Shown here piece after piece: positions 29,351 to 58,709 of a stretch of 64,000 nt of DNA. The notes under the pieces are model-generated. The model had not been told where the DNA came from. It saw nothing but the letters and a program-made list of their open reading frames with translations, and made no database searches. Origin of the DNA: Oscillospiraceae bacterium. Lineage in GTDB: Bacteria > Bacillota > Clostridia > Oscillospirales > Acutalibacteraceae. The translations under genes were made by a program, and so were the position numbers. Location of the stretch: assembly GCA_031551635.1 (NCBI GenBank), contig JAVBNH010000006.1, positions 11,208 to 75,207 of the forward strand, read 5' to 3'. Numbering within the stretch: the first letter of the stretch is position 1; every line of letters begins with the position of its first letter.

Positions 29351-29396
29351 AAAACCACCCTCCCTGTATCAAGAATCCAGGTTAATGCTGTTTTAG

Positions 29397-29417
29397 TGTA
29401 CAATGTACAATGTACAA
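29397..29417 (+). repeat. heptamer array (TGTACAA)x3
   Basis: Three perfect tandem units. Confidence 0.85.
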
Positions 29418-29578
29418 ATAGAGGTCGGGTAGGTAGAATTATGTGTGTTTTTACCTTTTCACCCGACTTGATTAAAGAAAATACATAATTTACCTGCCAT
29501 TAAATCAGCAAACTTATATTATTAAAATCATTCGCGAGCAGAATGTTAATAGCTACCGCAATTTAACTCGCGACCGCC

Positions 29579-29620
29579 ATCCAGCGTCTAGTATCCAGCA
29601 TCCAGTGTCTAAACTAGAAT
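29579..29620 (-). repeat. heptamer array, minus-sense CTAGTTT AGACA CTGGATG CTGGATA CTAGACG CTGGAT
   Basis: Six units with a 7-bp period, abutting the ispH-S1 terminator. Confidence 0.85.
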
Positions 29621-29651
29621 AAAAGTAAGGGCAGGAAACCCGACCCTTACT
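29617..29651 (-). terminator. rho-independent terminator after ispH-S1
   Basis: Minus-sense AGTAAGGG-loop-CCCTTACT followed by TTTTATT. Confidence 0.6.
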
Positions 29652-29662
29652 ATAATATTCAT

Positions 29663-29690
29663 TTGTACTCTGTACTGAGTACATAGTACA
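29663..29690. repeat. heptamer-like array TTGTACT CTGTACT GAGTACA TAGTACA
   Basis: 7-bp period. It is the partial inverted complement of the array at 29397..29417 and ends 1 nt before the ispH-S1 stop codon. Confidence 0.7.
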
Positions 29691-29691
29691 C

Positions 29692-31790: not shown

Positions 31791-32468
31791 TCATTTTTCA
31801 TTAGTTAGAATTTCAAAAATAATGTTCATCATCGCCTCAAGCGCCTGCTCAACCGACATCCCCGATGTATCAAGCAGCACAGCGTCCTCCGCCTGCTTCA
31901 ACGGCGCAATTTTTCTATGTGAATCCTGGTAATCTCTTGCGATTATTTCCTGCTTCAGCTCTTCAAAATCAACCTTGTTTCCCTTTGCCGTCAGCTCGTC
32001 AAAGCGTCTTTTCGCCCGCTCCTCAACAGAGGCTGTGAGAAAAATTTTTACATCCGCGTCCGGCAGAACAACTGTTCCGATGTCACGCCCGTCCATGAGA
32101 CAATTATTCTCTTTCGCCATATTTTTCTGTTGCTCCAGCAAAAAGGAGCGAACCTCAGGCAGCTTTGAGACATTCGACGCCGCCATTGAAGCCTCCGGCA
32201 GCCTTATCGCATCTGATACATCCTCGCCGCAGAGGAAAACCCTCTGAATCGAATCGATGTACTTCAGCTCCACTGACAATTTCGGCAAAACCGCCAGAAC
32301 ATCGCTGCTCTTAGCCGTGTCCAGCCCTGCCCTCAGCACTCCGACACCGATTGACCTGTAGAGCGCGCCGGTGTCAATGTAAATATATCCGAGTTTCGCG
32401 GCGGCAAGCCTCGCGACTGTGCTCTTACCCGCACCGCTCGGACCGTCAATTGCTATGTTTATACTCAT
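31791..32468 (-). CDS. cmk: cytidylate kinase
   Basis: IAIDGPSGAGKST. Start chosen at the third in-frame ATG (32468), 9 nt after GGAG; the track start is 32483. Confidence 0.93.
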   Translation of the reverse strand: MSINIAIDGPSGAGKSTVARLAAAKLGYIYIDTGALYRSIGVGVLRAGLDTAKSSDVLAVLPKLSVELKYIDSIQRVFLCGEDVSDAIRLPEASMAASNVSKLPEVRSFLLEQQKNMAKENNCLMDGRDIGTVVLPDADVKIFLTASVEERAKRRFDELTAKGNKVDFEELKQEIIARDYQDSHRKIAPLKQAEDAVLLDTSGMSVEQALEAMMNIIFEILTNEK

Positions 32469-32523
32469 TGTACTCATCTCCATTATTATTTCAGCTTTCG
32501 CACCTTTAAAAAGCCAACTTTTT

Positions 32524-32551
32524 AATGCTTGATGCTGGATGCTAGATGCTG
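32524..32551 (+). repeat. heptamer array AATGCTT GATGCTG GATGCTA GATGCTG
   Basis: Contains CTGGATG/CTAGATG units and continues into GAAGAGGTCGCG. Confidence 0.8.
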
Positions 32552-32779
32552 GAAGAGGTCGCGTATTTATCGCTATTTGGAAATAAAATTATAGCTCGCG
32601 TGGTGATTATATACTGATCCGCATTAAAATAGCTTCTAACTGTCGTTCGCTAATCCTTTTGCACTCTTACAAAAGGGCTCACTCCATTAGAAGCTTTTTA
32701 ATGGAGGATAAGTATTAATATAATTGTCCGCGTCCAGAGAGTTTAATTAAAAGTTAATGCTGAATCGCGACATCTTCCA

Positions 32780-32807
32780 ATATCTAATATCTAAAATCTA
32801 ATATCTA
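32780..32807 (-). repeat. heptamer array, minus-sense (TAGATAT TAGATTT TAGATAT TAGATAT)
   Basis: The first TAG is the stop codon of CDS 32805..34058. Confidence 0.9.
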
Positions 32808-34058
32808 AAACAGCGCATTTTCTCCCGCGATAAAGCCGGTTGAAAAGGCTATTTGTAAATTAAACCCGCCGGTATAGGCATTGACGTCTATGACCTCCCC
32901 CGCGAAAAAGAGATTGGCGCATTTTTTCGAGCGCATGGTTTTCGGCTCGATTTCGCCGACACTCACCCCTCCGCAGGTGATAATCGCCTCTTCAATCGGG
33001 CGGAAGGCACGCACATTCAGCTTTAATTCCTTCAGACACATAACAAATTCCGCACGCATCTCACGCGTGAGTTGATTAGCCTTCATCTCATGAGGAATTC
33101 CGCACAAATCGAGAATTACCGGAATCATCGCCCGGGGCAGCAGCTCATTAAAAGCGTTTACGGCAGCTTTATTAGAGTATTTCGCAATATCACGCTGTAT
33201 TCGGCTGTCAAGCTGAGTGACACTCAGCCCCGGTTTCAAATCAATAACTATCTCGTATTTTGTCTTGTCAGCATCCCGCATATGCGCGCTGGCGCTGAGT
33301 ATCACAGGACCCGATACACCGAAATGGGTAAAAAGCATCTCGCCGAAATCCTCATAAATATCTGCGAAGCCGTCCTTATCACGAAGCTTAAGCGAAACAT
33401 TTTTCAGTGCAAGTCCCTGAAGCTCTGCGCAGAAGCTTTCGGCGGTTTCAAGAGGTACAAGCGATGCCTGCGGCTGTGTAACTGTATGCCCAGCCTGTTT
33501 TGCGAGCTCATAGCCGTCGCCGGTTGAACCGGTCAGGGGATAGGACACGCCGCCTGTCGCGACTACAAAGGACGAGGCAAAAAACTCCTCACCTTCATAT
33601 GTTCTGACTCCTGTAATCAGCGGTGTTTCGTTATTCTCATTAAAAATGAATTCTTTAACGCGTCCGGCAATTCGTTTTACACCGCTTTTCTTCATAAAGC
33701 CGCCCAGCGCGTCAACAATATCAACAGCCTTGTCCGAGACCGGAAAAACCCTGTTACCCCGCTCGACTTTGAGCGGAACTCCCAGCTCTTCGAAAAAATC
33801 CATGGTATCCGAGGGCATAAAACGCGAAAACGCGCTGTAGAGAAAGCGTCCGTTTGTGGGCACGGCTTCGATAAGCTCATTGAGCATGGAGCAGGCATTG
33901 GTCACATTGCAGCGCCCCTTGCCCGTAATCATCAGCTTGCGCCCGACGCGCTCGTTGCGCTCGATTACAAGCACGCTTTTGCCTCTTTCGGCAAGCTTCC
34001 CCGCGCACATCATGCCCGCCGCTCCCGCGCCAATTACAATACAATCTGTTTTTTTCAT
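32805..34058 (-). CDS. HI0933/BaiN-like NAD(P)/FAD-dependent flavoprotein
   Basis: DCIVIGAGAAGMMCAG dinucleotide fold, 417 aa. The stop TAG is the first unit of a heptamer array. Confidence 0.8.
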   Translation of the reverse strand: MKKTDCIVIGAGAAGMMCAGKLAERGKSVLVIERNERVGRKLMITGKGRCNVTNACSMLNELIEAVPTNGRFLYSAFSRFMPSDTMDFFEELGVPLKVERGNRVFPVSDKAVDIVDALGGFMKKSGVKRIAGRVKEFIFNENNETPLITGVRTYEGEEFFASSFVVATGGVSYPLTGSTGDGYELAKQAGHTVTQPQASLVPLETAESFCAELQGLALKNVSLKLRDKDGFADIYEDFGEMLFTHFGVSGPVILSASAHMRDADKTKYEIVIDLKPGLSVTQLDSRIQRDIAKYSNKAAVNAFNELLPRAMIPVILDLCGIPHEMKANQLTREMRAEFVMCLKELKLNVRAFRPIEEAIITCGGVSVGEIEPKTMRSKKCANLFFAGEVIDVNAYTGGFNLQIAFSTGFIAGENALF

Positions 34059-58437: not shown

Positions 58438-58487
58438 ATGTGATGGTTAATGTTTCCTTCCGGCAAAATATGATTAAGATTTCTTAA

Positions 58488-58709
58488 CTAATGTGGGTTT
58501 GGCTTGCCAAGCCCACAACCCAAGTCGTGTCTTTTATTGAGCATTCGGCTCAATAAGGTACTAATGTGGGTTTGGCTTGCCAAGCCCACAACCCAAGTCG
58601 TGTTTTTTATTGAGCATTCGGCTCAATAAGGTACTAACGTGGGCTTGGCTTACCAAGCCCACAACCCAAGACTTGTTTTTTATTGAGCTTTCAGATCATT
58701 AAGGTATTA
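58488..58709 (+). repeat. three head-to-tail copies (73-76 bp each) of the palindromic element
   Basis: Units at 58488..58560, 58561..58633 and 58634..58709. The first two differ at a single position. Confidence 0.95.

Follow-up and report, generated by a model that had tools for sequence, protein, structure and literature searches.

Why should a cytidylate kinase gene (cmk) be preceded by 321 bp of repeat-rich, foldable DNA in a genome whose relatives leave almost nothing between this gene and its neighbour? The question arises from a stretch of 64 000 nucleotides of an Oscillospiraceae bacterium (hereafter the window). Reading these letters without database searches, an earlier analysis (the sequence-only reading) had described the spacer as one module of roughly 285 bp, bounded by array-containing inverted repeats around a structured core, and had proposed either a MITE-like element or a structured RNA. 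All its coordinates and sequences were found to be correct when the window was rechecked. We searched the whole host genome (2.95 Mb, a draft assembly in 45 contigs) and conclude that the cmk spacer module very probably consists of two nested non-autonomous transposons (MITEs) of unrelated families, for which family membership, ends, empty sites, target duplications in related copies and, for the outer one, a resident transposase could be established. The MITE-like nature of the spacer was therefore recognized correctly, although it belongs to two elements and not to one.

The locus and its proposed two-part insertion

Following the minus strand, the flavoprotein gene lies at the right edge of the module, cmk starts at its left edge and an ispH-S1 fusion comes next, the module as read being on the strand opposite to both flanking genes (Table 1). 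The organism falls within the Oscillospirales, close to the Acutalibacteraceae. The closest cmk relatives share 60–65% protein identity, and an exact-protein look-up found no identical cmk protein in other assemblies. Because the protein alignments with relatives begin only at residue 7–10 (tblastn), the true start of cmk is probably the third ATG, at about 32468. Of 43 relatives, 35 also have the flavoprotein gene and cmk next to each other, with a median spacer of about 8 bp versus the 321 bp found here. Since the two genes almost abut in these 35 relatives, the cmk spacer is, on this comparison, clearly not ancestral, and the same gene pair provides an empty site for the outer of the two elements.

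When the genome was searched with the 284-bp module as query, the module split into two independently recurring parts. The core (query positions 87–194) has five other genomic copies at 80–93% identity, and the flanks (query positions 2–88 and 193–284) recur directly joined and core-free at three loci (C36, C38 and C32). In the alignment these paralogs read ...GTGATTATA-TTATAATCG..., and it is there that the window copy has 103 bp plus a 3-bp duplication inserted. Because the flanks are contiguous in the paralogs, the 'structured core' of the sequence-only reading is best explained as a later insertion into the centre of an older, palindromic outer element. That reading had named three outcomes that together would speak against it, namely a module present in single copy, a fold unsupported by covariation and a spacer that is ancestral. 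Copies elsewhere in the genome, covariation in the core and non-ancestry of the spacer were found, so that it survives on all three counts.

From these comparisons we infer the order of the insertions and the loss of the outer right end. The flavoprotein gene and cmk would have almost abutted in the ancestor, until a palindromic MITE of about 215–250 bp entered the AT-rich stretch where they met, immediately upstream of the cmk start. A transposase of the IS4 family (ISPepr1 type), still resident in the genome, would have mobilized it in trans. Each end of this first MITE would have opened with a terminal repeat of 15 bp, followed inwards by a short spacer, then a heptamer array and finally a CGCG-box arm. 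Its AT-rich centre would later have received a second hairpin MITE, 103 bp long and from another family, whose insertion makes 3-bp TNA duplications. Finally, the outer right terminal repeat would have been lost, the right array coming to abut the flavoprotein gene and to supply its stop codon. Being one-ended, the outer copy in the window is probably immobile, and the module today would be DNA that is neutral or tolerated, transcription either passing through it or being weakly promoted by it on the way to cmk. More broadly, at least four repeat families are interspersed in the intergenic DNA of this genome.

Table 1. Genes and proposed transposon features at the cmk spacer (window positions).
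Feature	Position	Strand	Basis
cmk (cytidylate kinase) coding sequence	31791–32483	−	Pfam PF02224, E = 9.6e-73; tblastn against relatives
TTATTAT, AT-rich heptamer abutting the outer left end	32483–32489		Position
Left terminal inverted repeat, TTCAGCTTTCGCACC (family consensus CTCAACTTTCGCACC)	32490–32504	+	Inverted pairs at the ends of complete elements
AT-rich small hairpin, TTAAAAAG-CCAA-CTTTTTAA	32506–32525		Between terminal repeat and array
Left subterminal heptamer array, (GATGCTR)n	32525–32553	+	Tandem Repeats Finder; same array type in paralogs
Left CGCG-box arm: GGTCGCG, about 30 nt AT-rich, GCTCGCGTGGTGATT	32557–32608	+	Paralog alignment; nhmmer
Left target-site copy of the inner MITE, ATA	32609–32611		Alignment
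Inner 103-bp MITE, TACTGATCC...GGATAAGTA	32612–32714	+	Copies, covariation, absence from outer paralogs
Right target-site copy of the inner MITE, TTA	32715–32717		Alignment
Right CGCG-box arm, mirror of the left; minus strand reads GTCGCGATTCAGC...GGACGCGGACAATTATAT	32718–32772	−	nhmmer; paralog alignment
Right subterminal array, (TATCTAA)n on plus, TTAGATA on minus	32779–32808	−	Tandem Repeats Finder
HI0933-like flavoprotein gene	32805–34058	−	Pfam PF03486, E = 3.6e-85

The outer element and its probable IS4-type partner

The outer element spans 32490–32808 and has three full paralogs in the genome, about 80% identical to it. Related complete copies, including those of a sister subfamily, are 240–395 bp in length, all intergenic, and end in CTCAACTTTCGCACC. 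The two heptamer arrays that frame the module were confirmed by Tandem Repeats Finder (ATGCTGG, 4.1 copies on the left; AATATCT, 4.3 copies on the right), the right array being inverted relative to the left, as was the finding that the adjoining 15-mers, CTGGAAGAGGTCGCG (32549–32563) and CGCGACATCTTCCAA (32766–32780), match in reverse complement at 13 of 15 positions. Array and 15-mer had been taken together as terminal inverted repeats; they are in fact subterminal, and the true left terminal repeat, TTCAGCTTTCGCACC, lies outside the span originally reported. The CTCAACTTTCGCACC motif forms inverted pairs around array-containing complete elements and is shared, beyond the arrays, by the window copy and its paralogs. 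The left terminal repeat of the window copy fits the ISPepr1 end consensus YT-AA-YTT---A, and the small hairpin that follows it is kept in the paralogs C38 and C36. A search for the terminal-repeat motif beyond the right array found none; the window copy keeps its left end only, and its right array passes directly into the flavoprotein gene, whose TAG stop (32805–32807) is the first TAG of the array. The right CGCG-box arm has an nhmmer match at C26:43978–43921 (minus strand, E = 6.7e-5).

Perfect 7-bp AT-rich target duplications flank six of six complete outer-type copies (ATAATAA, TTAATTA, TTATGAC, TTATAAA, TTATTAA and TAAATAA), one of these coming from C36 and the other five from the sister subfamily. 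Among the three closest paralogs, C36 alone combines a terminal repeat at each end with a perfect duplication; C38, although it has the two repeats, lacks a matching duplication, and C32 is one-ended. As the complete paralogs carry perfect 7-bp duplications of similar heptamers, the TTATTAT that abuts the outer left end of the window copy is presumed to be the surviving copy of its target duplication. The window copy, which has one terminal repeat, would itself have arrived by transposition, judging from its about 80% identical paralogs.

The outer paralog at C32:8138–8345 is one-ended in the same manner, its array abutting the stop of the upstream gene and its far terminal repeat surviving. 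Taken with the window copy, this suggests that arrays come to lie against the ends of genes through recurrent deletion or through selection.

A candidate source of transposase is present in the same genome. Positions C1:34592–36113 hold a 1522-bp insertion sequence (IS) bounded by the same 15-bp ends (CTCAACTTTCGCACC) as the MITEs. Its product of 459 amino acids matches NCBIfam NF049925 (IS4 family) with 470 bits against a cut-off of 250, matches Pfam DDE_5 and DDE_Tnp_1 as well, and carries YSRRWDIEVFFKTCK, the Y-2-R-3-E-6-K signature. The published ISPepr1 subgroup is characterized by ends of the form YT-AA-YTT---A, a length of 1500–1600 bp, direct repeats of 7–8 bp and AT-rich targets (PMC2266710). 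The resident IS agrees with it in signature, ends, size, duplication length and AT-rich targets, and on these sequence features we assign it to the ISPepr1 subgroup of the IS4 family. On a metagenome contig we found a related IS, 66% identical, with the very same ends and flanked by a perfect duplication of TTATTAA.

The genome holds two copies of this IS, one at C1:34592–36113 and the other at the ends of C12 (about 100–175) and C17 (about 100–175). Their flanks are swapped, copy 1 reading TTAATAA / TTATTAC and copy 2 TTATTAC / TTAATAA, which is the pattern that would be expected if two oppositely oriented copies, each flanked by a perfect 7-bp duplication, had recombined and so inverted the intervening DNA. 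Heptamer arrays of the (GTAATAA)n type surround both copies. An origin of heptamer arrays in general as amplified 7-bp target duplications of the IS was considered and rejected: the duplications are AT-rich (TTATTAA-like) and most arrays are of the form T[AG]GAYNN, only the (GTAATAA)n arrays beside the IS ends fit, and related ISs in other organisms are free of flanking arrays.

The outer elements resemble the MITEs described for ISPepr1 and the IS4 family (De Palmenaer, Siguier and Mahillon, 2008; PMC2266710) in their ends, which fit YT-AA-YTT---A (here CTCAACTTTCGCA), in their 7-bp AT-rich duplications, in having an autonomous copy, here of 1522 bp, with a DDE domain and the YREK signature, and in that the short copies have only the terminal repeats in common with that IS. 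They differ in the interior of the short copies, which is unrelated to the IS and is a long palindrome of inverted heptamer arrays and two CGCG-box arms, and the window copy differs further in having lost one end. BrickBuilt, a MITE of Porphyromonas gingivalis (PMC4596501), is likewise species-restricted, intergenic and non-coding, with small inverted ends, internal tandem repeats and many variant forms, but it has one central array of 23-nt units and experimentally shown promoter activity, whereas the outer element has two short inverted arrays of 7-nt units. Both kinds of MITE, those with tandem repeats inside and those with promoters, are known (PMC4596501, PMC10969869).

The inner hairpin element and its possible roles

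The inner element is one of a superfamily whose members, each about 103 bp long, have in common the terminal repeat TACTAATCC.(.)CATTWAAA; this superfamily has 49 nhmmer hits in the genome, 31 of them full length. Identical 3-bp TNA flanks were found in 16 of the 31 full-length copies (TTA 9, TAA 4, TCA 2 and TGA 1) versus none of 31 in a shifted control; the window copy is flanked by ATA/TTA. The absence of the inner element from the paralogs of the outer one constitutes an empty site. A second empty site comes from the copy on C27, which sits within a palindromic repeat of 73 bp that other loci have in uninterrupted form. The interrupted sequence (inner copy at C27:11813–11915) is a double-hairpin repeat that is also abundant in the window (cf. 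58487–58706).

The core fold drawn by the sequence-only reading was borne out, with hairpin arms of 29 nt (32611–32639 and 32687–32715) that are 79% complementary around CCTTTTG/CAAAAGG. This hairpin is kept across at least five sequence-divergent subfamilies: 94% of cells are paired, versus 41–51% with the pairing slid, 18 of 28 pairs have changed on both sides, and none of 500 shuffles reached the observed score. On either strand, folding predicts a single nested hairpin for the entire insert, at -92.7 kcal/mol (z = -5.7) and -95.3 kcal/mol (z = -6.3). Such strong covariation in the core helices and such negative folding z-scores are what a structured non-coding RNA might also display, and the core or the whole module could on these grounds be a cmk leader or a member of a small RNA gene family, the second of the two natures proposed earlier. 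We regard this as extremely unlikely, since Rfam (searched with the window at the gathering score and with the region at E values of up to 10) gave chance-level hits only, the best scoring 20 bits where the gathering score is 80. Nor is the fold better on one strand than on the other; the copies are scattered over unrelated loci in either orientation and carry 3-bp target duplications, and the relatives lack any cmk leader. The exceptions to pairing point the same way, with roughly 16 G-U (seven of them from one subfamily) and roughly 12 A-C; as A-C exceptions are about as frequent as G-U, neither strand is favoured, which fits a DNA palindrome that is conserved as part of the element, and not an RNA.

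Against the nested-MITE explanation stands that a search of this assembly for an autonomous partner of the inner element found none. No pair of its terminal repeats encloses an ORF of transposase size in the draft assembly of 45 contigs, and none of the other DDE ORFs in the genome is flanked by these terminal repeats; in a draft of this kind a partner copy could be missing. The 3-bp TNA duplication presumably points to IS5-family groups. Repeats of the REP/REPIN kind are short palindromes that go with a single-copy Y1 (RAYT) transposase gene; the sole match to a Y1 (IS200/RAYT-type) transposase in the assembly is a Y1_Tnp fragment of 81 amino acids (29.5 bits) at the start of contig C19 (C19:80–250). 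A metagenome scan with the inner terminal-repeat pattern returned 30 loci, among which there was one true homolog. This is a full-length counterpart of the 103-bp MITE at L093:6668–6768 (metagenome contig Ga0123355_10003010, 41% G+C) from a different organism, so the inner superfamily is not confined to this genome.

Among known elements, the inner MITE may be set beside the Correia elements of Neisseria and other hairpin MITEs of that sort. Correia elements duplicate TA, whereas the duplication here is 3 bp (TNA), and the sequences of the two are unrelated. They are alike in size (about 100–150 bp), in long terminal repeats that turn the whole element into a hairpin, in short TA-containing duplications, in copy numbers of dozens and in their preference for intergenic DNA (PMC10969869).

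An insertion so close to a gene start might have been co-opted to drive or tune cmk, either through an outward hybrid promoter, in which a -35-like TTTAAA in the element end is combined with AATAAT in the AT-rich target, or through the long hairpin, at which processing or attenuation would free cmk from its coupling to the gene upstream. A consensus scan found one promoter-like site, TTTAAA-17-AATAAT, on the cmk strand (32510 to 32482), the same geometry is seen by eye in C38 and C36, where the end faces a gene start 20–40 nt away, and outward promoters are documented in other MITEs, such as Correia and BrickBuilt (PMC10969869, PMC4596501). The match, however, is just 9 of 12 positions, and the predicted transcription start falls at or after the GGAG ribosome-binding site; the promoter scan of the tool itself found nothing inside the module. 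CGCG-box units (72) are not enriched in forward sites, with 7 versus 11.7 +/- 3.2 in shuffles. For the hairpin version, the single nested fold of about -93 kcal/mol would be suitable, but no terminator-like site was found in the module. Overall, co-option seems to us unlikely; the module would be tolerated selfish DNA, for which an exapted role at cmk is possible. CGCG-box units as mobile promoters in their own right were also considered and rejected, the same 72 units having 19 reverse sites besides the 7 forward ones, to be compared with the 11.7 +/- 3.2 in shuffles.

CGCG boxes and heptamer arrays across the genome

The sequence GGTCGCG is 22-fold enriched beside heptamer arrays, and the pattern GGTCGCG, about 30 nt, CGCG, 2–3 nt, GATT has 34 matches in the genome versus none in a reversed control. 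An nhmmer profile extended the CGCG-box units to 73. In 63 distinct units the two CGCG boxes and TGATT are nearly invariant and stand at fixed spacing, and the roughly 30 nt between the boxes are unalignable. A conserved hairpin between the boxes was considered and dropped: some subfamilies pair by eye, and RNAalifold on the 63 units gave no consensus structure. The boxes are conserved as sequence, not as a helix. Because about 50 of the 73 units lie outside any recognizable IS4-type ends, the CGCG box and its array may form a module with a history or function independent of the IS4-type transposase.

Within the window, the array-linked end noted by the sequence-only reading does recur, GGTCGCG and an array being found again near 29569–29620. 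The recurrences of GTTAATGCTG, from which a family of elements had also been argued, are attributable to chance, with 8 occurrences in the window (at most one mismatch) against 4.5 expected, a number reached by 11 of 100 shuffles. At 29351–29691 (minus strand), between the ispH-S1 terminator and the next gene, lies a one-armed CGCG-box element that reads array, GGTCGCG...CTCGCGAATGATT..., AATCAAGTCGGGTGAAAAGG... and CCCGACC, with direct (TGTACNN) arrays on both sides; its CCCGACC right end is an imperfect inverted repeat of GGTCGCG. Elsewhere, C3:120953–121588 holds a composite of two head-to-head CGCG-box units in tandem triplicate, with a period of about 217 bp.

The genome contains about 436 heptamer arrays, and what they bracket is varied, being nothing at all, a CGCG unit, whole genes or a single PF05635 gene. 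The last of these, at C10:6170–6642, is the only PF05635 gene of the genome (23S rRNA intervening-sequence / four-helix-bundle). Arrays in inverted orientation stand on either side of it, (ATTCTTC) on its upstream side and (ATGAAGA)x7 on its downstream side, with units unlike those at the cmk module. A frameshift at a run of eight adenines (A8) interrupts the gene, which could reflect a pseudogene, a slippage site or a sequencing error. As this layout of PF05635 gene and arrays recurs once here, we treat it as a lead and not as a demonstration.

These observations raise the possibility that the array-bracketed CGCG-box palindrome is a 'heptamer-hairpin cassette', used by the host or separately mobile, that was captured by IS4-type ends. 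Its inverted arrays would form a docking or binding hairpin, and the GGTCGCG and CTCGCG..TGATT boxes would be putative protein-binding sites. This does not exclude the nested-MITE explanation, with which it is compatible. The near invariance of the boxes and TGATT over 63 units would be accounted for, as would the 44 arrays that adjoin a CGCG unit, compared with just 15 near an IS4-type terminal repeat, the excess of inverted over direct pairs of neighbouring arrays (43 versus 22) around varied cargo, and the bracketing of the single PF05635 gene. Yet no autonomous element bounded by CGCG units was found in the genome, the PF05635 gene is frameshifted at its A8 run, the wide variation of array units across loci speaks against one sequence-specific binder, and the CGCG family is absent from 400 genomes of the host's family, where the pattern gave only chance matches in GC-rich coding sequence. 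We consider a captured cassette improbable. Still more doubtful is its generalization, in which inverted array pairs would be a general 'bracket' system of hairpin arms that take interchangeable cargo (CGCG-box palindromes, the PF05635 four-helix-bundle gene, even whole genes), the boxes again being putative protein recognition sites and the cmk module being one bracket picked up between IS4-type ends. If it were true, it would provide a route by which the enigmatic heptamer arrays of bacteria spread.

Returning to the two nested MITEs, both elements were absent from 40 relatives (BLAST), and plasmid and phage collections contained nothing similar. Dispersed intergenic heptamer arrays are known in other phyla, as the TAACTGA repeats of Beggiatoaceae (PMC4679880) and the GGGAATC/GGGGAYT repeats of Xanthomonas and Nostoc (PMC4692102), in both cases without established function. 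The arrays described here share with these, and with the cyanobacterial STRR, the scattering of 7-nt tandem arrays over intergenic DNA. They differ in having heterogeneous units, mostly T[AG]GAYNN, in often forming inverted pairs that bracket other repeats, and in their gut-type Clostridia host, a group that we did not find described in PMC4679880 or PMC4692102.

For the organism itself, the long and structured cmk spacer needs no new RNA or regulatory system as its explanation. Annotation of this uncultured-type lineage of the Oscillospirales can now include two MITE families not described before, together with their IS4-type partner, and the insertion, having split a conserved and tightly packed gene pair, offers a simple test case for effects on operon expression. 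Some heptamer arrays are carried about in subterminal position by a transposon, the enzyme of which generates duplications of 7 bp, and this array-carrying transposon, together with the inverted pairs that bracket varied cargo, gives handles on what bacterial heptamer arrays are.
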